Shown: positions 3,366 to 61,500, counted from the stretch's first letter. The stretch: 64,000 bases of DNA from Yuukianura sp. NJ FZ-2021 (GCA_046563655.1 CM102287.1:6634001-6698000), one strand, 5' to 3'. A program made the numbers and translations. The notes: generated from the letters alone by a model not told the origin.

Positions 3366-4890
3366 ATGGCATCAAAGTTCCAGTCAGAGCAAGAGGGACT
3401 CTTTTCCTCTGGGTCCATTTCCTCGACATCTTCAACAATTACTCCTGCAAAGTCTCCATCACTGTACGTTTTTGGCGGTAGTGGGGTGGCGAAAGGCTGT
3501 AAGTTTTCTAGTTTTCAAACAGTTAGCTAAGATTAGTTTGTTAAAGTTTTTAACTTTTAGTGGCTAAATAAATTCGAATTTGAATTTTGGAGGAATAGGT
3601 TTATAAGAAGTTTAAAAATTTTGTCGCATATAGCAGTGAAAAGGGCGGAAAAACTTAGTTTCGCTAGGAATGGCGAGGAATGGACACGTTTAATGGACAT
3701 GCCTTTGGAACGAAACTACTTTTCTGGAGCTGTGGTGAATGGAATTATTTATGTTATTGGCGGACGAAATGCCAAGAAAGAAGTAGTTCAGTCTATTGAC
3801 TCTTATGATCCAGCAACCGAAGTTTGGAAAACAGTTTTTGGGGTCAAACCGGCATATCCGAGGTCAGAATTTGGTAAGGTATTGCTTAAAGCCCCGGTAA
3901 ATATGATGTTTGGCGAGTTAAGTAAACCTAACGAAACTCCTTTAAAGTTCTTTGATTTCACGTTTTTAGGTGCAGCCGCAGTGCGTGACAAAATTTTCCT
4001 GATTGGCGGCTACGCCGATGCTTGTCGTCGTGTGGAATGCTACGATGTGACGAAAAATGAAATTTCGGAGAGGCGGAGCCTTGAGCGTGGAAGGTGGGGC
4101 CTTGGAGTCGTTTATTGTCGAGGCCGGTAACATTCGTTTATGATTTCTAAGTTTTAAAATTTTATAAACATTTATACTGAACACTTAGCCCATAAGTTTC
4201 ATGAAAGTGTTTTTCTTTAACAAAATGTCAACTATACTATAACAGACTTTATACTGCAAGTTTTTTTCTGACAGGATCTATGCTTGTGGAGGACAATGGT
4301 ACAATTACAGAACGTCCGATGAAAAATCTCGGCGGCAAAGTTCTGTATATTTGAATGATGTTGAAAGTTATGACCCGGTAATTGATCGTTGGGAAAGAGA
4401 ATCCGGGATGCTTCGGCGCAGAGGCTACTTTGATATGGCCGTTTACGAAGATTGCATCTACGCCGTTGGAGGGATGGGTGGTGAATGTAACCAAAGGGGA
4501 TCTAGACGTTTGGACTCCATTGAAAAGTAAACACGGTTGATGACATTTCAAATTACTTTTGAAGAACTCTTTTAGCTTCAAACAATTTTAAAATTGTGTT
4601 TTTTTTTCATTTTCCTCAGGTACGACACTTACACCAAACAATGGTCCATGATTCCAACACGACTGGAAGGGACTGTCTCCAATTTGTGCGTTGTAGTTGT
4701 CCAGTCAAAGTTACTTGCGATTGGTGGAACATGCAATCGTTCACTGGAGAATGAACGTCCTGGAGCCAATTTCCTCAGTTCAATTCAAATGATTGACCTC
4801 AAGATGTCATTTTCGATGCAGACGACTGCAAAGGCATATCCGATTGCGCTTACGAGTCCTAGGCATTCCTTTGTAGCTGTTGTGCTTTGA
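3366..4890 (+). CDS. Kelch-repeat beta-propeller protein without BTB/BACK; 5 exons
   Basis: Repeated Kelch blades LYVFGG, IYVIGG...SYDPATEVW, IFLIGG...CYDVTKN, IYACGG...SYDPVIDRW, IYAVGG...YDTYTKQW, LLAIGG, with consistent GT-AG phases. Confidence 0.88.
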
Positions 4891-9216: not shown

Positions 9217-10143
9217 TTAGCCATGAATCTGCGTAACTGTCATAGCAGAGCTGAGGTCAAGTTGGCGGCCCTCCTTCATCTAAACCGAAAAAAAATCGAT
9301 ATGATTTTTGTTAAACTTAAATTCGAAATAACCAAACTACATATTGATTTTAGTTAGCGTACGTTTTTGTAGTCATCGATCATCTCTTGAAACTTTTTGC
9401 AGTCTATGAGGGAAGAGACTAGCTCGTGTATGTCGCCGTCAATATCGTGCCGACTTTGAAGTTCTGACACGAATCCCTCCATGTCAAACTCCGGCAACAC
9501 TTTCTTTATCTCGTGCTCAATATAGTGGGCCACGACTTGTGAGTATTCCTTGAAGATCTCGAAAAGCACTGCTGGTGTTGGGGAGGCGGCCTCTCCAGAA
9601 AAATGCTGGTAGCAAGATTCCAGTTGACTGTTATGGAGGGTTTGAAATTCAGGACCTAAAAGGGACACCAAATCCTCATTTCCATACACCTTCCGAGTTA
9701 ATTTAATCGGAATTGAACGGCTAAGCTAAACTTACTCATTATGATTTCCTCGATGACACCCATGATCCGGTCAAAAGCAGTGGAATGATAGTGGGAGTAG
9801 ATGTCAAGCTCTTCCCAGTCGTTCTCGTTAGTATCCATGTTCATAGACGAAAGTTCAGCTGTGGCCGAGTTTACTTTTAAACAAACGACAAAGTGTTATA
9901 GTTTAGGTTCTAAATTGGTGAATTATAACTAATTGATCTAAATCTAATGATGCTGAGGGAATACGATACACCCATGCATGTCAAAAACGGTACGCAGTAC
10001 TCATAAAATAAGTGATTTGGAATAAAAACGAAATTACTAGTACCTTGAGCTTCCGTATCAATGTTTCTATTTCTTCTGTTTTGCGTGTCAATGTTTTCCA
10101 GCAACTGATTAGTATTCGGACGTGGTTGATTCGATTCTTCCAT
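9217..10143 (-). CDS. ARL2BP: ADP-ribosylation factor-like 2 binding protein (BART domain); 4 exons
   Basis: FDRIMGVIEEIIMSPEFQ...IFKEYSQVVAHYIE...LPEFDMEGFVSEL...GDIHELVSSLIDCKKFQEMIDDYKN|MKEGRQLDLSS matches the remembered ARL2BP pattern. The upstream exon (MEESNQP...EAQ) joins in phase 1. Confidence 0.85.
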
Positions 10144-24112: not shown

Positions 24113-27100
24113 ATGCGTATACTACAGTTGTTGATAGCAGTCGTGTTCACTTTCACACTGACTCTGTGTAATGCTGAACATCCGGAGGACAGCAATTTTA
24201 TCTCAGACGGAGAAGACAGGAGGTCGCTGGAATCAGACATCTTAGATTCTTACTTCGACGAAAACCGAGAAAATGAAAACGCCCAGCCATTGTGGGAGGT
24301 TGAAAAAGAACCGGAAATTGAGGAAGTAATAGAACCCGTTATAGTAGCGAAGAAAGCTCCTTGTCTAGGCTGTCCGAACCCTATTGATATTCAAGATGAA
24401 AAGATCCAGAACCTCGCATTATTTGCATTCGGCGACTATATGGCTGACGCGGATAAAATGAGTTCTGATAATGACTTGATCGAAACATTGGTTCGTGTCC
24501 TTAAGGCTGAAAGCCAGGTACTCAAAAAAACTAATTTCTAAAGGAAATTCTTCAAAAAAAATATCGCTTTCTACTGGTTTGATTTGGTTTGATCTCAGAT
24601 TGTCTCTGGAGTGAAATACTTGCTTCAAGTAGAACTTGGATGGTCGAACTGCACTAGATCACAGTATCGGGACAACTCAAACACTTGCTCACTGGACGCC
24701 AGCAAACCTACGTTTAACTGCGACTTTCATGTGGTTGAGAAGGCCTGGCAGAACTCCAAAGAAGTGGTGCACAAAGACTGCGAAAAAGATGCTACTGTCA
24801 ACACCGGAAACGCCCTACCAACTGTCGAAGCAGAGCAAGTCCCAGCAATGGACAGTATAAGTCCACTCGACGCAATTGAGGAAGAAATAGAACGACGCAA
24901 GAAGCGTGAAGCCAAATATGGAGAACCCCGGGAAGCTGCCGAGGAGAAGGAGAAATTGATGGAAATTGCTCAATTTGCAGTCGACAAACTTGATGAAGTG
25001 GATGAAGACAATTTGGCACGCTTCGCCGTGGATATACTAAATGCAAATAAGCAGGTACTTCAAAAATGGTAAAATCACTAGTTCTTTTCACGGCATTTGT
25101 TTATTAAGAATGTTGTTTCCTTCTCCTAGACGGTTTCTGGATGGTTGTATCATCTCAAAATTCGAGTAGCACAATCATCTTGTCTTGAGCACTCTGCAGA
25201 CTCCACTCTACAAAATTGCAAAGAAAACATTACGTTGCCATTCCAGCGCTGCGAAGTAAAGGTTTTGGTACAGCCTTGGCAGACCGTTCAACAGAAACTG
25301 GTGCATTCTCAGTGTGTTAAAGAAAAATACAAAACAAGTAAGAAAGCAGCGAAGGAACTTTTCAACGTTGTTGAGAAGAAAGCGAAGAGAGCACAGGGCA
25401 CGATTGGCGGCCCACGAGTAATTGATCCTGAATCGGAAGATATTGCTGACATTGTCAACTTCGCCGTGGAGTCTATGGATAAAATATCGAATGCTTTGCA
25501 TGCACACAAGCTAGTACGTGTCGTTTACGCCGAAAGAAAGGTAAGTCGAAAGTCTTATTCCGTTTACTTTATTTTTGTTTGCGAACGTTTTATGACAAAT
25601 TGTGATTCATTAAAATCCTTAACTGCCTTTAATAGCTGGTGTCTGGGGTTTCGACCAAGCTTGTCCTTGAACTTGGTTACACCAAATGCCGTAAGAGTCC
25701 AAACCTCGACAGATCTGGTTGCTCCATCGATGATGACAGGGTACTCTTCACTTATTTTATTTTAAAGCACTAATGATACACAGAACAGTATTGTTGAAAG
25801 AATTGATGTTCTACTTCGATACAGGATCACGTGTACTGCAACGTAACAATTGTGGAAAAGTCGTGGCGGAGCGAGAAAAAGCTGTTATCTTCAAAATGTG
25901 GGAATCGGAACGAAATCATCGCGCTGATGAGAACTAAACGAGTAAAATCTCTAAAGTCTAAACCCGAGGCTCAAATTGTATCATCATCTTTCAAATTAAT
26001 TACTCATCCATTTTTAATAGGAAACTGTCGATGAAATGGATCTGGACGAAATCGAATTTGGTAGATTTATTGAAACTCATGGGAAAAACTACAGCCCCGA
26101 AGAATACGAGACTCGATTGAAGATTTTCAAAGACAATATCGAGAAAGTGAAACTATTTCAGAGGACAGAGCAGGGAACGGGTATTTACGGACCAACAAAA
26201 TTCGCTGACTTAACAGGTACAAGACTTGAATTTGCTGCGAATTTGATAATTTGAAATTTTAACTGCGGTGTTCGATGTTTATCTTGTGTTAAAAAAAGGT
26301 CATGCAATTGATTTTTGTTCTGAATTCAGAGGAGGAGTTCACAGCGCAATATCTAGGCCTCAGAATTGATTTAAAGCAACGTATGAAACGGAAGCAAGCA
26401 AAAATTCCACAAATCTTGAGCTTACCAGATGCTTTCGATTGGCGAAATTACTCTGCCGTTACGCCGGTCAAGAACCAAGGAATGTGCGGATCTTGCTGGG
26501 CATTTTCAGTTACTGGAAATATCGAAGGGATTTATTCCATCAGACATGGAAAGCTGATGTCATTTTCAGAACAAGGTATATTGAATCGAAATTGATAGTA
26601 ACTCAATTTTGGAAATGTATTCAACTTTCTAACTTTCTTTTGAAATCGTTTTAGAACTCGTTGACTGTGACAAACTGGATGATGGCTGCAAGGGAGGTCT
26701 TCCCGAAAATGCGTACAAAGCTCTGGAGAAACTTGGCGGACTGGAAACTGAAGGGGACTACCCTTACGATGGGCATGATGACAAATGTCAGTTCAATCCC
26801 AGGAAGGTCGCAGCCAAGGTTACGGGATTCGTGGAAATCAGTAAGAATGAGACCGAGATGGCAGCTTGGCTTGTAAAGAACGGTCCCATTTCTATTGGTA
26901 TAAATGCAAATGTGATGCAGGTAAAGGACAACGTTTTATGAAATACTACATTAACAATTATTTGTGAATTCAATTATTTCATTTTTGCTATTTTTTCTCA
27001 AGTTTTATTTTGGTGGAGTTTCACATCCCTGGAAGTTCCTGTGCAGTCCAAAGAATTTGGATCATGGAGTGCTAATTGTTGGCTACGGAGTGCACGGTAT

Positions 27101-27973
27101 GTTTATATGAACGAGACATGATGGCATTTTGCGTTCCATAAATGCTTTACCTTCCTTATGTACTACAACAAAAAAGCCCCCGCATTCGCAAGTTGTAGTT
27201 TACCAATTAATTTCCTTACCGCTTCCTCACTTTCATTTATAAACTTGCAGTGAAGGGGCATAAGACCGTTCCTTACTGGATTGTTAAAAATAGCTGGGGA
27301 CCAAGTTGGGGTGAAAAGGTCAGTGACAGAAATATTAATTCATATTTAATATAAATTTCAGCATATCCAATGTTCAATACTACTTTGCCATACTGGGTGA
27401 TCAAGAATAGTTGGGGAGTAGGGTGGGGTGAACAGGTAAATCAACTGTCGCTGTTTGGATCCGAGCGTCGTATTTTGTCGAGTTTGCGGTGGAGTTAGCT
27501 CTTTCTGAAACGTCTTATAGGGGTAGTGTGTGCGGAAAAATGTCGAAAATGGTTATATTTTTGCATTACCAATAGAGAGGGGCCCTTGCACTAATTTTGA
27601 AAAAAAGATCACCTCTAGGGCTCGTTGAACCCGGATCTTTTCGCAAAGTAACTCCACTTTCGCAGGGTCACCGATAAAGCTGAGGGTTTTGCGCAAATTT
27701 TTTTTATGTTACTTCCGAATCGGAAGTAACATAAAAAATTTTTTTTTTAAAAACAACAACATAAAATCGGAAGTTCCGATTTTATGTTGTTGTTTTTTTT
27801 TTGACGATTTGAAAGTATGCACACATTTCAGGAAGAGTTTATACTCATTGTTAAAATCTGCCTTAAATTTGAGTTGTAACAATTATGTTGTTTGACAGGG
27901 CTATTATCGCATATATCGAGGGGATGGTAGCTGCGGTGTGAATCAAATGGCAACTTCTGCGACGACGGAATAG
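24113..27973 (+). CDS. CTSF: Multicystatin pro-cathepsin F (CG12163-like): signal peptide, 3 cystatin domains, I29 propeptide, papain C1A domain
   Basis: Cystatin motifs QIVSG, QTVSG, KLVSG. ERFNIN-like [16 protein letters not shown] and GPTKFAD. Mature domain [19 protein letters not shown] (Cys), [11 protein letters not shown] (His), KNSWG (Asn), [15 protein letters not shown]. Confidence 0.95.
27251..27318 (+). other. Cathepsin F alternative exon A (catalytic Asn)
   Basis: ttgcag|...|gtcagt, 68 nt, phase 1 to 0, encodes [23 protein letters not shown]. Confidence 0.85.
27362..27435 (+). other. Cathepsin F alternative exon B (catalytic Asn)
   Basis: tttcag|...|gtaaat, 74 nt, phase 1 to 0, encodes [25 protein letters not shown]. 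Confidence 0.88.
27700..27797. repeat. Two adjacent perfect inverted repeats in the last cathepsin F intron
   Basis: 27700-27738 has 19-bp arms around position 27719, and 27749-27797 has 24-bp arms around 27773. Both are built from ttccga/tcggaa and aacataaaa. Confidence 0.9.
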
Positions 27974-28463: not shown

Positions 28464-30828
28464 TCAACTCAATTTTTTTACTCTGCCGGACCAAACTGGA
28501 AAGTTGCAAACTTTTTTAAATATTTCGAGAACAAAAACAGCAATGGAGACTGCCGAAGAAAACAAATAAATCATGAATGTCGTTACAGCTTTTGTTTCCA
28601 GACTCAGCGGCACTGGACTATTGGGATCCGAATGAACACGATTCAAACTTCGGATTTTCCTTCTCCAGAAGGCATCTTCTTTTATCACTGTTTTCCATTG
28701 TCTCCACCAATTGTAAATCCCTGATGCCAGGAGTCGGCGCATTTTCTTGTACAAAGCGTTGCCTGCTAGATGGGTAAAGACATAGCGTTCATGTGATGGA
28801 AAATGGCAATCCTTACCCTTCTTTGCCACAATTGAACCGTTAGTCCAAACCCACAAGTACTCAGCGATCCTGTCCAGGTTGCGATTGGTGTCGATGTAGC
28901 CGTTCCTATTTTAGGTTACGCTAGGTTACTAACTTGGACAAATTCAAATACAAAATATACAATTACTAGAGACCTAAACCTCACCTACGGCAAGTCGCCA
29001 GGTCGGCAACTAACTGATCATGGTCCAACGGTTGCCCGGCGGGGCTCACGAGGAAGTTGTATTTGTATCTAGGTAGGAACGGAAAAAGGCTGTATGCCCT
29101 TTGACTTCGTTGCTCATCGAAAAATGCAGAGTCACGCTCAGACCGATGCTGCAAAAAATCAGTGTTCGCGACCCAGTACCCCTCCGGGCATGACTCGCGC
29201 GGCGCAGGTTTCACGAATCCATGCGTACTGTTTCCTTTGCAAATGTTTGTATCAAATATTTGGTTGTACTCGCCAAACGTTAGAGATTCTTTTTGATTAA
29301 CTCCGAACTGGGGGTACAAATAAGACTGAATTCTGGAATAGAGGAATCTTTGCGGAGTGATGAAATAGAATGACGCCATCTCCGTGGTATTGTACCATGT
29401 TCCGTATTTTTCGAAAGGAGCTGTGGAGTATGTCGTAATCAAGCCCAGATAGGCGTTCGTCAAAACGACGCCTAAGAGAGACCAGAGGCCGAGGGTTAGG
29501 CGCACTAGCCGGGTCATACCTGGCAGTAACCGAGTAATGTTAATGGCGTCTTGATTCATACCAATTCCTATCAATGTTGTTGACACTGCTTCTGCTGACC
29601 TGTAGAAGATGTAGTGAATACTTGAAAGATTAATTTGCGACGGAATCTGAGCTAACGTTGGCGCCAAATTTGGAAGGGAGCTTTCAAAAATGTAAATGAA
29701 AACGTTAAAAATGGAAATGGCTAGGATGGTTCCTAGAGTGGCGTACCAGCACCACATGTCGTAAGGGAAACTGTAAAAAGTAAAACTCAAATTTTCGTCT
29801 ATGATGGTATCGCAGGTCAAAAAATTAAAATTCAATTCGCGCATGACGACAACCGAAAACTCGTTGTCAGGAACCGGAACTTCTTGCCGAACTCGAAGCC
29901 ATGCTTTAAGTGCGCCGTCGTAAGTCACGAGACCGTTAAGGTTGTAGACGCCCCTGTGATAATAGTATCCCAGGTCTTCAATGAGAAGATACATCAAACA
30001 AACTTCCAGGGAGTGCGCGGTAGAAGAGTTCAACGGGCTCCTGAATTTGTATGCATGATGTCGACTGATCAAATGGTAATCGCTAAAGAATCGTTCCATG
30101 ACAGTCTTGTTCTCGATGGGTGGGCGACATGGTAAATTTCGGCTAATATCAACAAATATGACCCCGAATTTTGTGGGGTCATTTATTGATAGGTGAACGA
30201 TCTTACGAAAATTTCTTAAACTCTGATTTTGGATTGACTCAATCAACAGGATCACTTTCTTTTCGGACGCTGTCGAAATACAATGTGTACCGAATTTAAG
30301 CAAAGAGGTTTTCATCGTAGTATGACCTTGACGGCTTTCAAGGTTAAAGAAAGTCAAATGTAAAAAAAAGTAGTGAGGGCCAAATACTTCGCGATAGTTG
30401 AAGGAAGGGAACTTGTGGGTCAAGTTCACGTTGTTGGAAATTAGGAAATAGTAATCATGTTGATCTCTCCATTTCTGACAAGGTAAATTTCCTAAGCACT
30501 TTCTGACGCTGAAGGTCGGTGGCTCAAATATGTATTGCATGATCTTTGTCGTTTCCGGAAAGAAAGCAAATGAAGCCTCACATGGGAAGATATGCTCACG
30601 TGCGTTAATTTTTCTCGACAGATGAATCACGGGATGTGCCGAGAAGTTGTCCATAAGAAAGGAATGTGTATTCGGCACAAAGACTATTATGTAACATTCT
30701 TTGAACGCTCTAACCCATGACCTCAAGTCAGTACGTAGGCTTAGCGCGTCTCTGTACGATATTATATCGGCCAAAGTTGTTTGTGTAGCTAGCAGAATAA
30801 TATAAATTGAAAATGTTTTGTATAACAT
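28464..30828 (-). CDS. Divergent ionotropic-receptor (IR)-like chemosensory membrane protein; exons 30828-28985 and 28905-28464
   Basis: Signal peptide, NFLTC...LSFTFYSFPYDMWCW plus TM1, LTLGLWSLLGVVLTNAYLGLITTYSTAP (TM2-like), MRRLLASGIYNWW, and PLSL...F plus last TM. The 78-nt intron keeps frame. Confidence 0.75.
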
Positions 30829-31531
30829 TTCGAAGTGTCAAAATAACTACGATGTTCACGCGCAAAAGATCACGGGCGATAGAACTCGAGCGTTTGACTC
30901 CATAGTGGATTCTAGACGCAGGGAAAAGCGCATAACCTCAAATGAGAAAAAGTCAACGGCCAAGTTTGACGATTAATAACCAAAACAAACAAAGTTTGTT
31001 TGCTTAGCCTATTTCATAACTTTTTCCTAAATAAGTTTTTCCCTGCAGAGAATTCCCAGTTCACTGGTACGTTGGTTTGGCACGATGGCAATTTTCTTTT
31101 GAATTTCAAAATTTTGAGCGATGAAAGCAGACAATTTTAGGTTAGCTTTGTTTAAACTAATATTTACCGTAACGAACAGATAAATATTTTATTCTTCGTG
31201 TTGTATGCCAAATAGTAACGAGAAATCTTAGAAATTTACGGCAATTCAATAAAAATTGAGGCGTCCTTTGTGGTAATTTGGAAAAAAAAACATTTTATTT
31301 AAATGTAAATTAAATAATTCCCGACAGGAGTCCTTCGCCCATTATTAGAGAAATAATGGTATGGTAAAAAAAAATTAGCCACGGGAACAGTTAGCTTTTA
31401 ACCAAAAGTATATTATGTCATGTTGTATTGTATGAATGGACCAGTAATTGTATGAAATTGAATTGTATGAATAAGCAGCAATAATGATTTACAATTTAGA
31501 GGATCGAATTTCCGTTAGTCATTTAATTTAC

Positions 31532-37109: not shown

Positions 37110-39014
37110 TTAATCACCGGAATATATTCGTAGTTTTGTTGGTTGAAGTATTTCTACTGCGTCTGCGTCTCTGTGGAATGACAGAAGCAATATTTTCGTT
37201 GTCAGAAGTTCAATTACGAAGAAAGATGAGGACAGGAGGAGTAGAGCCGTCCACAGAATAAACGTCGGAGTGATTCTCCAGTGGGACATGTTGAAAGCCA
37301 TCGGTTGTTCCAGCTCTGTTCTGGCATTGGCTACTTTACGACGGTTCCGCCAGAGGGAAACATGGTTCTCATAGTCGTACAACCACGGAGCAATTCCAGA
37401 GTCAATGAGGCGCAGAACATTGGAATGTAGGGCGTCCTTACCACCTTTGATAAAGAAGTGTTTGAATTTGAGCGCCCTCTTGTCATTCCTCAGTCGATTA
37501 CATTTGATCTCTGGATAGGAATCGAGAGCGTAGAAGGATTCCGGGTCCAGCACAATGTCATCATCCGTCGTCAGGATTGCAACTTGACATTGTGCCAGTA
37601 GTCGAGTTCTCTCCTCCTGCGAACTGTGTTCAAACGAGGTCAAACTGTTGTCCAGTTGACCTTGAGAAAGTCCTTCGCTTTCAAAACTGTCTAACATAAC
37701 TCTGTACACAGGGTCAGAGGGGTCAAGTGTAGGGACTCCCTGGATCTTGTATCTTTTGTCAACAACGAGTTCTCGGAAGGTAGTGATTCTAATGGGCGGA
37801 GAGGGAATAGTCACATCACTGGAGAGGTTGCATTCGTAGATGGCGCAGAGGAGCATGAGCAGAACTGAGCTGTAGATCCGAATACCTGATGTGGTCAACA
37901 ATTTTTCCCTGTAGACCCAGTTGCTGCATTGAATGTGACCTTTGGCACAAACATCCAGCATCACTCCAACAAACATTAACAGAATGATAGACGTTGGGTC
38001 GAGTGCAAACGGGCGAACCCAGAACCAGAGGTCAAGGTCCATAAGGTCAACGTGTGCGACACAGTAGACGAGACTCGTGAAAATGTCACCACGGTATAGA
38101 ATTTGAGCCATGGAGACCAAGGCTGTAGAATTCCATGTACTGGAGGCTAATGGGTCGTCAAGTGAAGCAAGGCCAATGACCTCTGGGTCAAGTGCTTTTT
38201 TGAAGGAAGAGTGATAGTGGAGCGTAGCATTCAGTTTCCTAGCAACCGTTTCCATGATGGACACCACAGCTATTGGCTTACAAGTTGCCGCTCCCCTAGA
38301 ACTCCGCATTCTCGCATGGTAAGAACAATCACGTGCTGTTCTATCCGTCAGTTCCGGATAGCGTCGAGCCACTACTTGCAGTATCCCGCCATACCAATCA
38401 GAATAATTCGGAAGTGTTTGGATACCTACGTGAGTCCAAAGTTCTTCTGAACGCAAACTACTGGACACTTCCGATTGGTTAACAGTAAACGACACAACTT
38501 GGCGTGACCTACAGAAGGCACATCGTTCATACACTGCTTGGAGTCCAGAAAATGTTGAATCCAGTTGAACAGCACGAAACGATCCACTGACAAACGGAAG
38601 TTGCGAAAAATCGGAGTCTGCGCAGTTGACATTCGAAGGAACGACAAAAGCAAAGGAAGAAGTTTCTTTGAAGGGAGATAGGACACTGATCGTTTGGAAA
38701 TCGAAACAAGACTTTGCTACAATCACATTGTGGCGACAAATGACACGATTCAGTTGAAACTTAACAAAGTCAGTTTGGTCAACGTCAGAAGCATTTGAGC
38801 GGCCAAAGATCAATGACCTGCTTAATACAATCTTGGCACCATGTAGATCCTGGCTAGCCAGCATTAGATGGTCAACTATGTTAGTCAATTCGTATTCAAG
38901 CGCAGCAGAATATGAAACGAGGATGTCGTAACTTTGGCAAGTGCGACTTTGTATACCCAAAATTTGGTAGAACAGACAAAGTATCAAACACAGGAAATAC
39001 TTTGGAGAATACAT
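37110..39014 (-). CDS. Intronless divergent ionotropic-receptor (IR)-like membrane protein, 634 aa
   Basis: Signal peptide, SLVYC...LDLWFWVRPF plus TM, LLCAIYECNLSSDVTIPSPPIRITTFREL, VLRLIDSGIAPW, and a C-terminal TM. Confidence 0.72.
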   Translation of the reverse strand: MYSPKYFLCLILCLFYQILGIQSRTCQSYDILVSYSAALEYELTNIVDHLMLASQDLHGAKIVLSRSLIFGRSNASDVDQTDFVKFQLNRVICRHNVIVAKSCFDFQTISVLSPFKETSSFAFVVPSNVNCADSDFSQLPFVSGSFRAVQLDSTFSGLQAVYERCAFCRSRQVVSFTVNQSEVSSSLRSEELWTHVGIQTLPNYSDWYGGILQVVARRYPELTDRTARDCSYHARMRSSRGAATCKPIAVVSIMETVARKLNATLHYHSSFKKALDPEVIGLASLDDPLASSTWNSTALVSMAQILYRGDIFTSLVYCVAHVDLMDLDLWFWVRPFALDPTSIILLMFVGVMLDVCAKGHIQCSNWVYREKLLTTSGIRIYSSVLLMLLCAIYECNLSSDVTIPSPPIRITTFRELVVDKRYKIQGVPTLDPSDPVYRVMLDSFESEGLSQGQLDNSLTSFEHSSQEERTRLLAQCQVAILTTDDDIVLDPESFYALDSYPEIKCNRLRNDKRALKFKHFFIKGGKDALHSNVLRLIDSGIAPWLYDYENHVSLWRNRRKVANARTELEQPMAFNMSHWRITPTFILWTALLLLSSSFFVIELLTTKILLLSFHRDADAVEILQPTKLRIYSGD

Positions 39015-39464: not shown

Positions 39465-42400
39465 TTATGATTCTTCGGTTAGGTCAATCAGGTCATCTGT
39501 TCCGCCAACGACGTCTGTCCTGGCTAAAAAAAAAGTTTACTAAACAACTTGCTTGACTTTCTTTCGAAGTTTAGTGATCTAACCAATTTTGACTGGAGTT
39601 GTTGTGGTGTCCGTGGATTTCCTAATAGAGCTAAGTTTGTTCCTTGCAATCGATCCGTAGGGAATTCTGGAGTTCCAACCTGGCAGTGTGGACGTGGGGC
39701 AGCCGCTGATGTTGTCAGTAAACCTTGTTTGTCTCGTCCAATGTCCCTTGACCTCTGCTCCAGTTTCAAGGTCAACAGTTGCAAAATAAGTGTACTTGGA
39801 AGGAATTCCTAAAAGTAAACCTCACCATGAGTTGTCGCTTGAACTTAAGAATAAGCTATTGTGATCTTACCCTCTCGAGTTGCAATTTGCAGAATCTTTT
39901 CCTTGCTCTTGAGGAAATCAGTTCTTGACTTGCGAGAAGGACAGGAAAGCTTGGGTATCATTTCCTCCAGTTGCTTCAGTCCTTTGGCATAAGCTAACTT
40001 TGTCAAAATGTCCATCGCAACGGTGTGGTCCTCTCGAGCGTCAGTGAGCTATAATTTAAAGTTCTCCGCGTAAACATGTATAATATCAAAAAATCAAACT
40101 TTTATGAGTTTTACCTTGACGTTATAATCGAATTCCAAACTTTCCGATTCCGCGACGTAGGAAACTCCTTGAACATCTAAAGCTGTTGGGTAGAACTTGT
40201 GATTAAAGATTCCAAAAGTGACAAGTTGAGTTCCACTGAAAATGACGCTTGGAGAGTCTGGAACTTGGACCCACGGCATTTTGTGGTTTGGTCCAGCAGT
40301 TTCTTTGATGATTTCCAATTCGTCGTCACCAACTGGTGGAGATGAGCCTGATCGCTCTTGCCAATTCGTCCAACTTAATTTAATATCTGCAAAATCCAAG
40401 CGTTTACTTAACCACATCGTGCCTCGCCCCATACTAATCGTAAGAAAGCAAAACTGAAAAGATGATAACCAGTGAGAGATGGAGAATTAGCGAGTGTCAT
40501 GAGTTCACTCAGAGGCGACTGCCACGAAGAGTCTGTTGATGCAGACGCAGTAACAGGAATCTGAAGAGCTATTCCGCCTCCAGCAACCGCAAGTCCTTCG
40601 AGCTGAGAATATGGGACGCCGATTCCTACAACGAACAAACGAAATTTGTGTGATTTGTTGTGTCGTCTCACGAGAGATTCGCAGGCTTCCATTTCGTCAA
40701 CCTGAGTGATAACCAAGACAAACCATATACAAACCATACTTTATAATCCCCTTATGTATCTGGTGTTGTTTACAAAGTGATTACAAACCTTCAGAGATTT
40801 CTGAAGAACCAAAATGATTTGACAAATAGAGGGAGCAGAAACAACTTCGTCCATAGTGAAAACTTTCTCAAGAAACGTTGAGGTAGAAACACTCCCATCA
40901 TCTTCTTCATCTTCTACAAAACGTAAATACATGAGAACCTATTTAGCAAGTCAAGAACAACACTTACTTACCTAAGGAAATGAGTCTCGAAGCTTTCCGA
41001 ACACTCTCCCCGTTAGTACCGGCTTGAAATTCGGAGAACAGCGGTTTCTGAGACCATGGTCGAACAATATTGAAGGAAGTCTTGGAGCGTAGGGACCTCA
41101 GGAGAAACTTAAAAAAGGAATTTAGCGTTTCAGCGAATATTTAGCGTGGAGAACACGGTGCGTAGAAAAAGAAGTTACCTTTATCGTTCTGTGCATCGTG
41201 AGATTTTTATCTTCGTCGGGACCAGAATCCACAGCAAATAAGAATGACCGATTAGATGAAGGAACGGCCAAGATGGGACAAATTGTGGCCATAAGCACAG
41301 TTTCATCGTTTGTTTCCTGTGAAAGAAATAAGATGTGGGTTTAGGAGCTTTACCTAGTAGTAAAAGACATTTATTATTTATCGTAATGTAATGTTGAAAC
41401 ATACCTCAACGTATATCCGAGGAAGTAGTGGATCTGTGGGTGTAATAGACACCACAAAATCACGATCCATCTCCTCAGAGGTCCCTTCAAATACAATTTT
41501 TGCCATTGTCCAATTCTCTTTGTCACTCATTTGATCAATAACTGCAAGATGGGGAACATGGGAGTCACACTCCAACAAGCCAATGCTTGACTCCCCCTGG
41601 AAAATAAACTCAACATTGATTTTGACAACTCCAGCCCCAGCCACGACCTTGTCAACAACAGAAACCACTTCGGGTAGTTTCTTCTTGGCAGAGTCTTCAT
41701 CATCATCTGAAAGATCGATGCTAAAAAGCAAAGCATGAAAGTAGGTATTATAATTTGACTTGTATTCTGCGGAAAATCTGACTTTCAAACCTCACCATAT
41801 AATATCATCATCACCAAGTTCTTTTCCAATCACCTTCTCCTTCTGAGGCTCAGGTTCAGGAGGCTGTTCCGACGTATGTTGGTAGCGTGGAACTACGGTG
41901 TCCGGGATTTTAAGTTGAATCTTATCGACATTCAACTTGACTTCGGTGACGTACGCTATGGTCACTACAATGCTTTCCCCTGGCTTCAGCACTCCAACTC
42001 TTGTCTATTTCAAGGCAGAATCGCATTAATACAACAACGGATTTGGATTATGCATTTTTATATCGAACACGGTTTATCGTTTAAGAGTAGCAGGCACCTG
42101 ATAAACATCCGGGGGGTCACCTGGTCCAATTGCAAATCTTGTAGGATGGTACTTTACTGCTTCCTCATATGATTTCTCACTGTCCGTTAAGGGTTCCCCG
42201 ATCACAAGATTCTAGAATCCATTGAACATTAGACACTGAATTAATAAGTGATATTAGAAATAGATCCAGGTACAACTTGAATTTATAATTATGTGTGGAC
42301 TTACTTTTCTGATGCCAGAAACAAACTCAACTTCAAATCCCGTAACGAAATCATCCGTGTGGACGGGGAAATAGAATATAGTGTCCACTGCTTTCTGTTG

Positions 42401-42586
42401 TCGGTTGACGTACGTCTGGGTAACGATGACCTCGGCCGCAGCATGTACAACAGTTCCCCGGATTTCAACACACTCCAGTGATACCGGCAGAGGGTCATCC
42501 ACAGAATCAGTCTCTGTTTGCTGCGAAGGAAAGTAGACAAGACCACATCTAACATTTTCAAAATGTTCAAACCTATTTAAAAACAT
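39465..42586 (-). CDS. VWA5A: VIT plus von Willebrand factor A domain protein (VWA5A-like)
   Basis: VIT motifs VSLECVEIRGTVVHAAAEVIVTQTYVN...FYFPV...VTGFEV, VGVLKPGESIVVTIAYVTE, IPDTVVPRY, MDRDFVV. vWA region LLRSL...FNIV, RLFVVGIG, LEGLAVAGGG. Also QVPDSPSVIFSG and GIPSKYTYFATVD. Confidence 0.8.
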
Positions 42587-42779
42587 CTTGACAAGAGTGA
42601 TTTCACTAATCCACGAATCCGATTCTTGAAAACAGTAGTACTAACTAATGAACTTTAAAGTTATATGTGCTTTAACTGCAGTTATCGATTGTAATTAAAT
42701 TCAGTCTTCATTGCTTCCTCAGTTATTTCAGTCCATTTGTTTATGTTTAGTTTTTTTTGGGTTGGAGTAAGGAGCAGCG

Positions 42780-43523: not shown

Positions 43524-44787
43524 ATGTCTGAGGAAATGTTTATTAAAACGCCGCTTCTCGAAAGTCCATTTCTTTCAAGTTGTGTTAATCCGTTAAAAGT
43601 TTTTCTAAAATTGGAAAACTGTCAACCCTGCAATTCGTTTAAGATTCGGGGGATCTCCCACTTGTGTCAAAAGGTTACTCTAACTAATGATAATTTTAGG
43701 TAAGTGATTCTTTTGAACTAAAGATATTTTTCGTAGTTGGTTGCAGATGGATACAAAGAGTTTGTTACTTTTTCTGGCGGAAACGCTGGAATAGCCTTAG
43801 CATATGTCGCTTCTCGCTTAAAACTTCCGTGCCACGTTGTTGTTCCGGCGTTTGTTTCAACAAGAGTTTCGGAGCGAATCAAATTCTTCGGTGGTCAGAT
43901 CCACGTAAGTCGTTTGCCAAAAGTTTTCTAAAAGTTATTTTCCCTCTTATTTTAAAGATGAAAATTTTTAGGTAGCGAAAACAGCCCGGGCTGCCCTCGA
44001 CCTTGCCATCAACATGGGCAAAGAGAATCTGGGCATGGCGTTTGTGCATCCTTATGACGATCCAATTTTATGGTAAACATTTCCGAAACTTTTTGTCGTT
44101 TTTTGAACTATAGTCTAGAATTCATTTGTACTGAAATAATTGCAAATTTGACATGACCTTGACAGGGAAGCATACGCAGACATTGTGACAGAAACGAAAG
44201 AACAATTGAATGGACAAAAGCCATCTTGTTTCGTATTGTCTGTTGGTGGCGGTGGACTTCTGATGGGGATTTTGACTGGACTGGAAGCAGTTGGCTGGAG
44301 TGACGTTCCAGTGGTCACAATGGAAACTGAAGGGGCCGCTTGTTTCAACAAAACGCTTAGGGCTGGAGAAATTGTGGAAAACGTGTTCACCAGTATTGCA
44401 AAGACGCTGGGAGCTCCATCCGTAACTCCCGCTTTGTTAGATGTCCTGCCAAAATTTAAAATCATCTCTGCCGTCCTGCCTGACGCTGAAGCAGTCACAG
44501 CGTGTTTGAAATTCGCAGGTTATTTAAACAAAAAATATAATTTTGGGACATTTTTAAGCACTTTTTTTTTGTGTACAGATCACCATGCTTTTCTGGTCGA
44601 GCCGGCATGTGGCGTATCATTGGCCGTTGTTTACGAGCAGCTTCTGCCTGACATCCTGCAGTCCAACGGTGTTCAAGTTGATGAGTCCGCTGGGCCTGTC
44701 GTAATGATCGTCTGCGGTGGATCTGACACCAACGTAGATATCCTCCGTGACTATGCCCTTCAAGTCGGCGTCTCCGACGAAGTGTAG
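43524..44787 (+). CDS. SDS: L-serine/threonine dehydratase (PLP-dependent, SDS/SDSL-like); 5 exons
   Basis: IKTPLLES...FLKLENCQPCNSFKIRG (PLP Lys), SGGNAG, VHPYDDPILW, LSVGGGGL, SIAKTLG, LVEPACG, IVCGG. Confidence 0.92.
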
Positions 44788-47329: not shown

Positions 47330-49082
47330 TTAGAATTCTTGGATGTGGATTGATTGCCGCAGAACCATTACTTTGGCCTCATCAATTCCAATTGAGTTCA
47401 TCTTGACGTTAATGGCGTCTTCAAGTTCCAACTGATTGCGCAACAGGTTGCGCAAAACGTTCTTCGTTTGAAGAATTTTTGTGTTGATCTTTTCCATGGA
47501 CTCGTTCAGACGGTGAAGTTCCAAAACCAATCCGCGTTGAACAGCGTCCCTGGAATTTGTTTTACAAATGATGTATTCACGGTTTCAAATAAAAAAGTCA
47601 AATTTTTTTTAAATTTAAAATTTTTGAAATTGTGAGCTTACTTGACCAATTCCATGTTTGGACGCTTTCCACGAATGCAAATTCGTGTTTCAGCGAGCGC
47701 CACGGCGCTCTTTTTTTCTTCAAAAGCTTTCTCCAAAGAGCAGATTGCCCCTTCGATCTCTCTGATATTTACAGAAATCTGAAATTACAGATTTGAAATT
47801 AATTATTAAAAATCATTTTTTCGAATTTCTTTCTGCCAAATTCCAAATTTACATCCGAATGTTGAGCCTGCAATTTCTCCTTTACTTCGATCAGTTCCTT
47901 GATTCGTTTCTGAAAAGCACGATTTGTCATACAAATTTGCTTTTCAATGTCCTCGACTGCTTGTCGCAGCAGACTGTCAATCTGGGTGCGTAATTGGACC
48001 GAATCGTCCACAGCTTTTTGCGCAGCCATTCTGTTGCGCAGAGTCAGTTCTTCCCAGTCCAATTCATCAACATTGCTGTGACAGGATTCAAAAGAGACAA
48101 GAAGTGATGATTTCATTTGACCTGTCACTTGGAACTGGAATTTGATAAGTGAAACAAGTGTGAAAATTCTCACCTGATGTCCACAATGTCCACCATACAA
48201 AGTGGCTGAACTTCTGATCGATGGACATTGAGTGAATGTGCAAACCGATCAATCTCCAGTGCTCGGTCCTTGTCATGTAGCTCCTTGTCAAGATGAAAAG
48301 CAGTCTTGCGAAGAAGCCGAACTTGTTCCTTTGTACATTCGACTGTCGAAATCAGAACTTGCTGGATTCCTCCAACAATCCCCATTTCTTTGACCAAATT
48401 CTTCTGAGGTTCGTCCTCGACCAGATCAACCCCAACACGACACTCACTAGAGAAAGCAATCAAAAAATAATCATAATTTGAATGTTGTACTTAAATTGGA
48501 GGGGAAAATTCAATGTTAACTTACCGCAATCCGATAATTTTTTCATCAATTTCGAGAACGTGATTGAAAGATGCGACGGCATTCTCCAATCGTTTTCTGT
48601 AAATCAACTGAGCATCCACCTCGTTGTTGATTCCAGCAAACTTGAGGCTGAGCTCATTGCGCCAGTGTTGAACATCCGCCAATCGCTGCTTGAAGCGCCA
48701 ATCCACGTCGAGATGAGCTCGCCGAGCCATTTCCTCCGCTTCATCCTTGACGCGGACAGATTCTGCGTGAACATGTTCCGCAACCTGGCGTTCCGCCTCT
48801 GCAGCTTCAGTGGTCAGAACCGTGGCCTGCTTCCACTCCTCTGCGGTGAATAACGGCGGCTAAATTCAAACAATAACGCATTATGCACGTTCAAAATGTT
48901 ATCAATAGACCGTACAAACCACTTACATAGGCGCAATGTTTTGGAACTGGAATGTACCGGTCGACGTCGAACGGTTGAATCTAAATCATTTTCATAAAAA
49001 GTTTACATTCCAAAATTTATTTTAAAAAAACTGATTCCTAAACTTAAACGTGTATTGTACTTACGTTTTTGCAACACTGCAT
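47330..49082 (-). CDS. Tektin (tektin-1/Tektin-C-like), divergent; about 8 exons
   Basis: MQCCKN|IQPF...|PPLFTAEEW, KQRLADVQHWRNEL, RVGVDLVED, LHDKDRALEID, TNRAFQKRIKE, AETR...RPNMELVKD, LEDAINVKMNSIGIDE. Confidence 0.9.
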
Positions 49083-58548: not shown

Positions 58549-61500
58549 ATGAGTTGTACAGTGATGTATCAGCCCTATGCTATGTCCTACTCCTCATCCG
58601 CATCTTCAGCTTCATCTTCTTCATCTTCATCTGCCTCATGTGAAAAATCATCTTCTGCTGACAAGGTGAGTCTCTCAGCTTTTCTAAGATGACAGCTCAA
58701 CAATTTGTCAGTTGAGAATCAAATGAACTTTAACTTTTGCAATGAGGAACTTTGAAGCAATGAAAGTTTAGAAAAAATGGTTTAAAAAAATGATGGCAAA
58801 ATGTAATTGTTACTCCGCCGGAGTGATTGAATTGGACAGAGTTTGAGTAATCGAGTAAGTCGTGGTACCCGGCGGATTGTAGAGTTCCCATGCAAAAAAG
58901 AAATCCGACACCAGTTTTGAAGTAGCTGGGAAGATGCAATTTACCAGGGTAGATTGAGTCATAAAAGTCATTCATTTAAGAAAGATGCAAATGTTATGCT
59001 ATTACAGATTATAGAAAATTATGATCTCAATTATTAAGTGCTAATCAGGAGGCATGACCAGCGCAAATGGAATTGAAGCGAAGACGAAGAGGAGGCGGCG
59101 ACAATCAGGAGTCAGCGATTTTTTTTTGTATTGGCAATATTTTTGTGACTTGAAAGCGATATGCCATTAACTTTGAATCGATACGCTGTTAGATTTGTAA
59201 TTGGCGATGACGCAGTAGTTTAAAACTTCAAATCCATTGAATGACTCTGTTCTGTAAAAGAGGAAATGATCTTGCAATTGTAATTTTTTATGATTTTGTA
59301 AAACATGATTTCAAAAACATATTATGGGATCAAGTTAAAAAGTTTCGCTGTTTAGTACTATTTTTGTTTTTAGCAATTAATTCAGATTTTGTCAAAGTTT
59401 TTTTCCTGTTCTGTTCCTTTGTTCCTACAACTTCGTTCAAAATTCAACGAATAAATTTGAAAATTATTTGCTTACGACAGTGTTCTACTTTTTTACAAAA
59501 ATTAACCTAACGGTGTTAAATCCAAAACTTATTATTTTTAATGAAAATTTTCAGAAGGTGTTTAAACTACCCCAAGCTCCTTCACCACCAGACTCTCTTC
59601 ATTCGGATGCATCACCCTACAACAGTCCTGGACCTTCCATCTCAGGCCAATCTTCTAATCACTCGCAATCCCGGCGACCTTTGACCCCCGGAATTTCCCA
59701 TTCAACCTCTCAGCATCTACAACTGACACCTCCTTCAAGGTCAAGCACTTGCACCACAACGTCTTCGCTCCTTGACGACCATCAAGATGGCGGCGGAACG
59801 AGTGCCAACAGTTCTCCAAGACACAGTCATCACCACCAAAGCCACATTCACCATAGTCACTCTCACACGCTCAGTTCAAGACACCATGGAAGTGGTCAAG
59901 GACACACAAGTACTCATGGACAAAGCAGCAGTCAGGGGTCATCGACTGCCAGAGCTGGTCCGAGTGGCAACCAAGTCCAGTACTTGTCAGGGAATGCTGC
60001 AATTTACATTAACTACAATGGAGATGCTTCCAGAACAGTGGACGAACATTTCAGTCGAGCTCTCAGCGAGGCTTACTCTAACGAAAAAGTCTCATCAAAA
60101 TGTAAGTTCCGTGCTGTTTTCATTTTTATTTTAGCGACAAAACTATTTTTTTTTAATTTTAAAATTTCGAAATTGCGCTGCTGATTTTTGAGTTTTAGAA
60201 AAGAAAAGTGAGAGATGTCATAAATAAGTATAAGTTCATAGAGGTTTTAGGTTTCGTGTCAGCGGTGAGCATTTGGGTCGCATTGTGTTCTGCCTTTGAA
60301 ACATGTTTTCAACTTGTAATGTTTTTTTTAACTTCAAGGGTTCCAGGATTTGAGGGAATTTGGATAGATTTTGGGATGAGTTTAAAAGAGGGGTACTTGG
60401 ATTCGTTATTTATGTTATTCTTTGTCATGGATTCGTAGGTGTTCCATTCTTTTTAGAAGGAGACTGACACTTGGAGCACTTACTGTCACTGACTCTTTGT
60501 CTTTGTCCTACAGTTACGTTGTTCTGTTTGAGCACTGGCAAGGGGCAGGAACATGGCCCTGCCTCTGCCATTACATATTTTATGTCCAAAGACGTTTTAG
60601 TCCATGCACAGTCAGACTTTGGTGGAAGTAAGTGGAGAAATGTGGCTAATATTTTATAGGAAATAAATCCTGGGTAACGACCCATTACGACAATGAGACA
60701 GTGAATGAATGCTTTCCACTTACGCCAAGGGAAAGTAGTTTCTAAGTTCACACGCAATGAAAACAAAAAGAAAGTGAAACAGTACCTAAAACGAAAAAAA
60801 AAATTAGGTACAAAAAACGATCTGCTTATTTTGTCCATCAGGAAAAAAGTTTCACTTTTCTAGGGAAAGTTTTTTAAGTCGATTTAGCGACTTTGGAAAT
60901 TCTTGAAGCTTTATTGGAAGATATTTTTTCTATTTTCATAAAAAACTGAATTCTAGGTGCAAGTTTTCGAATTTAGGAATTCAAAATCAAAGAAATCAGA
61001 GTTCGACAACGCCGGATAAAGAAAAACAGCAGTAATACGTCATGAGTTTATTGGTTTATCAGTTGATTGGCTTGAATTCAACTGCAGAACTCATGCTTTA
61101 TTTCGTTTGCGACTGCACAAAGTCCAAAATTTCTGCATTCAGCGTCATATCCTTTTCCCGTGCTCGATTTCCTGGAGGGTTAAGGAAGTGAAAGGCTTAA
61201 GGATCAGATTGTTGAAGTTAAGTCAAGGGTCAAGATGATTTAGGACTAAGATGGTGTAGGGACAACGAGGAAATGAGGCAGGGGGACTTAAGTCCTCATG
61301 TGTTGTCATTGTCACATGGGACAGAGTCTTCTTGTCTTTTCCTGGAATAATGTGTGTTACTTGAAGTGTTCTTTCAGTAAATCTTGAGTTCCGGCATATG
61401 GAAGAACGGGTTGATTTCCTTGGAGCGTCCAGTCACTCTTCCGTTAAAGCAGGGACACAGATGTGGGTTTGCCATTGGAGATTCAGCTCTTGACTCACAC

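Follow-up and report, generated by a model that had tools for sequence, protein, structure and literature searches.

Mutual exclusion of exons 2 and 3 of alpha-tropomyosin is achieved through an intervening intron that is too short, and Dscam-like exclusion depends on docking and selector sites, conserved complementary intronic elements that lie upstream of and beside each variant. Insect serpin genes carry alternative exons for the reactive-centre loop, which are mutually exclusive and offer many alternatives. For OGDH, passages of one study describe exons 4a and 4b as mutually exclusive, with a restricted intron length (PMC7969005). Excerpts of a human survey state that most events in which tandem-duplicated exons replace one another are ancient (PMC9741552), and arthropod myosin heavy chain appears as an example of such a substitution in the section of the work cited here (PMC2257972). 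In the literature searched, neither cathepsin F nor any other papain-family protease was found among these events.

The window analysed here, a stretch of 64,000 nucleotides from Yuukianura sp. NJ FZ-2021, holds a cathepsin F-like gene in which the exon for the catalytic Asn is present in two tandem versions, A and B. Judging from sequence comparison, we consider it likely, with a probability of roughly 80%, that A and B are a true mutually exclusive exon pair, which arose long ago when the next-to-last coding exon of arthropod cathepsin F was duplicated in tandem. The arrangement resembles the alpha-tropomyosin and OGDH type in that two homologous exons are adjacent, the spacer between them would be too short for joint use of the first exon's donor and the second exon's branch point, and only one of them would be included. 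The spacer length also appears to be restricted (30-51 nt in five genomes), as in the passages on OGDH. Unlike in these two systems, the host is a gene for a secreted or lysosomal protease and not a cytoskeletal or metabolic one, the branch points are putative, and incompatibility of the reading frames provides an extra safeguard. With the substitution events mentioned above the locus shares isoforms that are identical except for one homologous segment, an ancient origin and selection on both copies.

Results

A cathepsin F-like gene in the window

The coding region of the gene extends on the plus strand from the ATG to the TAG at 24113..27973, according to an exon model that was guided by the full-length related protein P0005. 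The start ATG leads into a signal-peptide-like stretch. The transcript plan comprises 9 constitutive exons, followed by A or B and by the last exon, and the predicted product has 812 aa in the A form or 814 aa in the B form. In a global alignment of 833 columns, 559 positions are identical between the predicted isoforms and P0005, which is an A form. The constitutive exons 1-8 (24113..26920, plus strand) are located at 24113-24517, 24599-25054, 25130-25540 and 25636-25740 (exons 1-4) and at 25825-25941, 26021-26216, 26330-26575 and 26655-26920 (exons 5-8). The eight upstream introns, with lengths of 81, 75, 95, 84, 79, 113, 79 and 82 nt, all have GT..AG borders. Exon 9, referred to as the His exon, covers 27003..27096 on the plus strand and contains the catalytic His codon (27063-27065); it closes after the first base of a codon and is followed by GTATGT. 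The intron between the His exon and exon A (27097..27250, plus strand) has 154 nt and is not conserved in relatives.

Several features identify the product as a cathepsin F of the papain family C1A. Peptidase_C1 (Pfam PF00112) matches two exons with E-values of 6e-19 and 4e-22, and Pfam Cystatin is found in two upstream ORFs (24593-25069 and 25130-25762) ahead of the propeptide. The catalytic Cys (codon 26494-26496, plus strand), His and Asn are all present in conserved contexts, with the Asn being supplied by A or B. The translation of exon 6, which encodes the propeptide, follows the pattern E-x3-R-x2-I-F-x2-N-x3-V-x3-Q. This is the ERFNAQ-type spacing by which the cathepsin F motif is defined, with V replacing the A of the motif. 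When the related protein P0007, which is 78% identical to exon 8 of the window and stood in for the window protein, was compared with solved structures, human cathepsin F (1m6d) was the best match with an E-value of 2.6e-81, and the best cathepsin L reached 3.5e-62. In its Peptidase_C1 domain, its Cys, His and Asn, its ERFNAQ-type propeptide and its N-terminal cystatin-like domains the gene resembles cathepsin F (human CTSF, 1m6d; Drosophila CG12163 by database name). It differs from human cathepsin F at the site of the segment encoded by A or B, where the hairpin loop of the human enzyme is 6 residues shorter in the alignment. To our knowledge, human cathepsin F has no alternative exon at this place.

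With exon 8 (88 aa) as query, 620 proteins among 739 candidates matched at E ≤ 1e-10. Among the 120 matches listed, the closest named one is from the springtail Allacma fusca with 80% identity to exon 8, and closer matches reach 91% and 86%, which makes a springtail or an animal close to springtails the most likely source of the window. In the neighbourhood of the gene, two minus-strand ORFs (28984-30837, 618 residues; 37113-39014, 634 residues) have no Pfam match at E ≤ 0.001. Neighbouring exons at 937-1359, 3561-4127, 9357-9725, 42257-42640, 44152-44784, 47802-48248 and 59381-60181 bear domains of an ordinary animal, including CH, Kelch, BART, VIT, PLP-dependent enzyme, Tektin and Vestigial. 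The window is typical nuclear animal DNA.

Two homologous exons for the catalytic Asn

The original prediction, which had been made from the window alone, placed two homologous exons with AG/GT sites behind a His exon with a phase-1 donor, each of them entering in phase 1 and leaving in phase 0. All of this was reproduced, and the tandem exon pair is confirmed as described: A and B are adjacent and each has its own splice sites. Exon A (27251..27318, plus strand, 68 nt) has the acceptor TTGCAG and the donor GTCAGT, carries the Asn codon at 27289-27291 and, together with the carried-over G, reads [23 protein letters not shown]. Exon B (27362..27435, plus strand, 74 nt) has an acceptor ending in TTTCAG and the donor GTAAAT, carries its Asn codon at 27406-27408, and its translation is [25 protein letters not shown]; the NTT that had been noticed in it is an N-x-T sequon at 27376-27384. 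The spacer between the two exons (27319..27361, plus strand) has the expected length of 43 nt, begins with GT and finishes with AG. Downstream of B, an intron of 463 nt (27436..27898, plus strand) leads to the last coding exon (27899..27973, plus strand), which is entered in phase 0 and ends with the TAG stop at 27971-27973.

Counted from exon 8, the His exon joined to A and the last exon is open over 166 residues, and with B in place of A over 168 residues. When A and B are joined, a stop follows after 11 out-of-frame residues, and when both are skipped, after 10 residues, in agreement with the frameshifts that had been predicted for both cases. Retention of the spacer likewise meets a stop. 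Exactly one of A and B can be included productively, as these frames show. A tblastn search of the 64-kb window with P0005 matched both exons (E-values of 7e-6 and 6e-4), so that their homology is no product of chance, and neither this search nor a six-frame motif scan revealed a third copy of the exon in the window. For the final 16 codons, comparison of A with B gave differences at 5.0 of 8.3 synonymous and 7.0 of 39.7 non-synonymous sites, which bears out the earlier observation that synonymous codons differ between the copies.

The intron 3' of exon B additionally contains two adjacent hairpins with 24-nt arms at 27695-27743 and 27749-27797. The arms of the first (27695-27718/27720-27743) are 92% complementary and those of the second (27749-27772/27774-27797) 100%. 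The paired hairpins are probably a small foldback insertion.

Differences between the two segments

Out of 292 collected proteins, 235 matched the pattern of the segment and comprised 87 A (48 unique), 134 B (106 unique) and 14 other sequences. Both types share an invariant proline, first Trp and K-N-S-W-G as well as, within W-G-E, the W-G; the E is present in 47 of the 48 A segments and in every one of the 106 B segments. Type-specific, by contrast, is the loop that comes after the strand leaving the catalytic His. The A loop is rich in threonine/serine and basic, with a mean of 3.4 K/R/H, and a sequon is found in none of the 48 segments. In B it has the motif Y-P-x-F, with a mean of 2.2 K/R/H, and an N-x-S/T sequon is present in 25 of 106 segments, that of the window included. 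The two residues after S-W-G also differ by type in most species, while varying considerably within the types as well. P is the commonest first residue after SWG in both (23/48 A, 39/106 B), and acidic residues account for 4/48 in A and 18/106 in B. The last residue, after WGE, is K in 18/48 A segments vs 1/106 B segments.

In the AlphaFold model of P0007 (pTM 0.85), the His starts a strand (residues 203-214), which is followed by a turn (215-220), a second strand (221-228) and the Asn at 229, with pLDDT values of 87-91 in the hairpin. According to this model, most type-specific residues are at the far end of the hairpin, with strands of 8-12 residues, the distance between loop and cleft being judged from strand lengths alone. 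The exon swap had originally been understood as that of an active-site segment. This is overstated: A and B have the same catalytic Asn and the same two Trp, those of SWG and WGE, which shield it, and the type-specific residues lie in the hairpin's distal half and directly behind SWG.

Our best guess is that the switch affects some property of the surface or of an exosite, and that the chemistry of catalysis stays as it is. The main rival to this reading is that the swap retunes substrate specificity directly, with post-SWG and Asn-adjacent strand residues reshaping the primed-side subsites, which we regard as possible but doubtful. A direct effect on these subsites is conceivable because the two variable post-SWG residues adjoin the conserved Trp. 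Moreover, both Trp and the catalytic Asn are encoded in the exon, A and B of most species have different residues between SWG and WGE, and the frequencies of acidic residues after SWG and of K after WGE are uneven between A and B as given above. However, most type-defining positions (columns 22-30, 25-column segment) would be located in the turn and the outer strands of the hairpin, a dozen residues from the catalytic His in the model, A and B do not differ at the positions closest to the catalytic residues, and the post-SWG residues vary a good deal inside each type. On balance we favour a surface or exosite property, and candidates for it would be an N-glycan (B types only), a basic patch (A types only) and the susceptibility to two-chain cleavage. 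With less confidence, partner binding may be counted among the differing features.

Conservation in related genomes

A scan of metagenome contigs yielded 80 loci, the first 40 of which were inspected. Five of the inspected loci are unspliced genomic DNA covering exon A (L001, L003, L006, L007 and L008). In each of the four that extend beyond exon A (L001, L003, L006, L007), A is followed by B; the contig of L006 stops 12 nt into B, and that of L008 inside A. The A-B spacer has 43 nt in L001, 30 nt in L003, 51 nt in L007 and about 43 nt in L006. Among the window, L001, L003 and L007, the mean pairwise nucleotide identity is 0.73 for A and 0.74 for B, compared with 0.32 in the intron upstream of A and 0.38 in the spacer, and the introns flanking A and B cannot be aligned among the relatives. 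In Nei-Gojobori estimates, which are rough with 22-24 codons only, exon A has a pS of 0.35-0.86 vs a pN of 0.12-0.25 (10 pairs) and exon B a pS of 0.59-0.91 vs a pN of 0.06-0.20 (6 pairs), with pS exceeding pN in every pair. The His exon is tighter still (pN 0-0.07). Since pS is well above pN in every pair, A and B are both under purifying selection. This agrees with the original prediction of selection on both copies, as does the higher identity of the exons compared to the introns, and a search of related genomes for decay or absence of one copy found both kept in 4/4 contigs past A.

It is very unlikely that one copy is a dead or dying pseudo-exon in this genome, so that a single protease would be made. 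Relaxed constraint could explain that the A loop of the window has a 2-codon deletion compared with the common A type, and the B of the window continues with V-G behind SWG, in place of the E-S, E-N and E-H of its three relatives. Nevertheless, both exons have retained open frames, AG/GT sites and all invariant residues, and pS is well above pN in the comparison with three or four related genomes, among which the flanking introns are unalignable. The short-loop A is spliced into mRNA in the relative L002/P0005, and the short form is also present in L001. In addition, the A and B types have both persisted since before the decapod-hexapod split (see below).

As to length, the A loop is 2 residues shorter in the window, in L001 (a 91% relative whose exon A lies at 1675-1742) and in the spliced L002 than in the A type of all other species seen. 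The shortening of the A loop is a deletion specific to this lineage, within a region whose length is otherwise constant. The contrast of a short A loop and a long B loop, which had been part of the original prediction, is accordingly correct for this lineage but does not extend to most species, whose segments are of equal length.

Both forms in other arthropods

Spliced contigs of relatives have one exon each, A in L002, L004 and L009 and B in L005 and P0006. The spliced contig of L002, from which P0005 derives, has an unbroken frame of 821 aa and a short-loop A type like that of the window, without B. An all-against-all blastn of the metagenome loci returned near-identical groups, none of which differed solely in the segment, and hence no A and B transcripts of one species.

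For 23 arthropod species, public records contain annotated A and B forms of the same gene; these species were found via 90%-identity clusters and the listed matches in a survey that left out Diptera, myriapods and most chelicerates. Fourteen of them belong to Frankliniella, Zootermopsis, Schistocerca (six species), Gryllus (two species), Cryptotermes, Periplaneta, Allacma and Lycorma, a further seven to Neocloeon, Hetaerina, Homalodisca, Bacillus, Procambarus, Cherax and Homarus, and two to Diorhabda. The groups with both forms include, among hexapods, springtails, mayflies, damselflies, grasshoppers, crickets, stick insects, termites, a cockroach, thrips, planthoppers, leafhoppers and leaf beetles, and, among decapods, crayfish and a lobster. 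When 15 pairs of equal length were compared residue by residue, they had 9-12 differences, all of them 48 to 24 residues from the C-terminus; two Diorhabda pairs are an exception in that they differ additionally at the very C-terminal end. Given the way annotation pipelines work, we assume that many of these annotated isoforms are backed by transcript data.

Several public models depart from this plan. A and B are read in tandem in P0165 (Ephemera), P0175 (Petrolisthes), P0168 (Timema) and P0162 (Allacma), both exons are skipped into a shifted frame in P0139 (Schistocerca nitens X3), and in P0146 (Gryllus) part of the end of the His exon is deleted along with the segment. Such aberrant models are probably annotation errors due to the tiny spacer, or rare unproductive transcripts. 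The 90% cluster of P0114 from Trichogramma mixes cathepsin F with proteins named pre-mRNA-processing factor 39, which suggests fused models of neighbouring genes in this genus.

Although the models that read both exons or skip both are plainly wrong, it is hardly credible that the A and B proteins elsewhere are paralogous genes or annotation artefacts and the tandem exons a lineage-specific oddity, as the two members of each compared pair are equally long, come from one contig and show no difference outside about 25 residues, the tandem layout is seen directly in four springtail-like genomic contigs, the erroneous tandem models themselves place both exons side by side in mayfly, crab and stick insect, and the forms stem from several independent sources, namely RefSeq XP_ records and the submitters' own records.

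Other taxa were seen with one type. In Anabrus, all three proteins seen have B. In 10 clusters of Hymenoptera and Lepidoptera, B is found in 44 of 44 segment-bearing proteins and the A type in none of these 44; 24 further members of the clusters are without the segment. Ticks (P0211, P0234, P0245, P0251-P0253) have an A-like basic loop only, and spiders (P0244, P0250, P0254-P0257) the B loop only. This pattern could be due to reciprocal loss from an older exon pair or to convergence. With this split between ticks and spiders, the pair may have arisen before the arthropods. A lancelet protein (P0047) has an A-like loop, too.

Age of the duplication

A tree was built from 32 segments of 16 species, using the 25 columns where the pairs differ and leaving out L003 and L007. 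A and B form the two sides of one branch, with a support of 97/99 in the maximum-likelihood analysis and in 96% of 200 bootstrap trees; with 25 columns only, the inner branching is unresolved and the A/B split is clear. Between species, the mean identity of the segments is 0.67 for A-A and 0.74 for B-B, and that of A-B within a gene is 0.58. In 232 of 240 comparisons, B resembles the B of another species more closely than the A of its own gene, and the corresponding count for A is 181 of 240. Since the A/B split falls on one well-supported branch, the duplication predates the decapod-hexapod split.

Discussion

We propose that in each mRNA the His exon would be joined to A or B and then to the last exon, which would result in two otherwise identical pro-enzymes of 812 and 814 residues. 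The claim that one gene makes two proteases by exclusive exon use was the core of the original prediction, and it is supported by the comparison with relatives, i.e. by the 4/4 contigs, by purifying selection and by the 23 species with both forms. As a first step of exclusion, the A-B spacer would be too short to be removed as an intron. It has 43 nt (30-51 nt in the five genomes) vs 75-113 nt for the 8 upstream introns, and the only branch-point-like motifs for the B acceptor, which are putative, are located 19-30 nt from the donor of exon A. Steric exclusion may not be absolute in every species; the 51-nt spacer of L007 is not far under the length of the 75-nt introns. As a second step, inclusion of both exons or of neither would shift the frame and lead to an early stop, so that the frame rule would serve as a backstop.

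Exclusion by docking/selector RNA pairing was considered as well and rejected: four genomes showed no conserved intronic blocks, and only imperfect pairings of 10-12 nt, at chance level, were found at the exon flanks.

At the protein level, the switch would exchange the outer half of the His-Asn beta-hairpin, the two residues that follow SWG and the exon's final residue. In cathepsin L, cleavage at a hairpin loop gives rise to the heavy and the light chain. In an alignment to 3hwn, the A/B loop falls on the loop that connects the GYG and YW strands of cathepsin L, and we take this position to be the site where cathepsin L is cleaved into two chains. Unlike the loop of arthropod cathepsin F, that of cathepsin L is fixed and not alternatively spliced. 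Since the A/B loop aligns with the cleavage loop of cathepsin L, for which parts of a preprint deal with the processing of a single chain into a form with two chains (bioRxiv 10.1101/2025.08.17.670765), isoform-specific processing is a concrete hypothesis.

The serpin genes offer a further comparison from the world of proteases and their inhibitors. There, too, exclusive exons swap a short functional segment, and one serpin gene gives rise to several specificities. However, serpins exchange the bait loop of an inhibitor, whereas here the protease's own structural hairpin would be exchanged, with exactly two alternatives since before the decapod-hexapod split.

Only tentatively, and with somewhat less than even confidence, we extend this to a wider scenario. 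The switch would predate the decapod-hexapod split and be undescribed in papers, the hairpin tip would be basic and never glycosylated in A vs Y-P-x-F and often glycosylated in B, and this tip would form an exosite or processing site at the place where cathepsin L is cut. The two isoenzymes would then differ in maturation, partners or location and hence have separate roles, and A would have been lost in several holometabolan orders. If this is true, the loss of exon A would account for its absence from exon catalogues based on flies.

Tandem exons of which one excludes the other are familiar, as is exclusion through a short spacer, and the locus reveals no new principle. A description of the A/B switch was not found in full-text literature, in a search that had subscription journals and supplements outside its range, and the available passages of a paper on papain-family evolution and of a survey of hemipteran cathepsins contain none. 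The assertion that there is no prior description therefore stands for searchable papers but not for sequence databases, in which the isoforms are already present. What we report is a real and very old isoform switch in a much-studied enzyme family that has apparently not been written about.

The diversity of papain-family cathepsins is commonly attributed to gene duplication, and here one gene has two versions of a structural hairpin. The locus would also provide a clean natural example of exclusion via a conserved ultra-short spacer, and it flags a recurrent annotation error, with tandem reading of the exons in at least 4 species and skipping of both in at least one. Since the two versions have been kept since before the divergence of crustaceans and insects, each presumably does something that the other cannot, and the hairpin tip and the post-SWG residues are pointed out as a functionally important surface. 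Studies on pests and crustaceans that treat 'cathepsin F' as one protein may average two.
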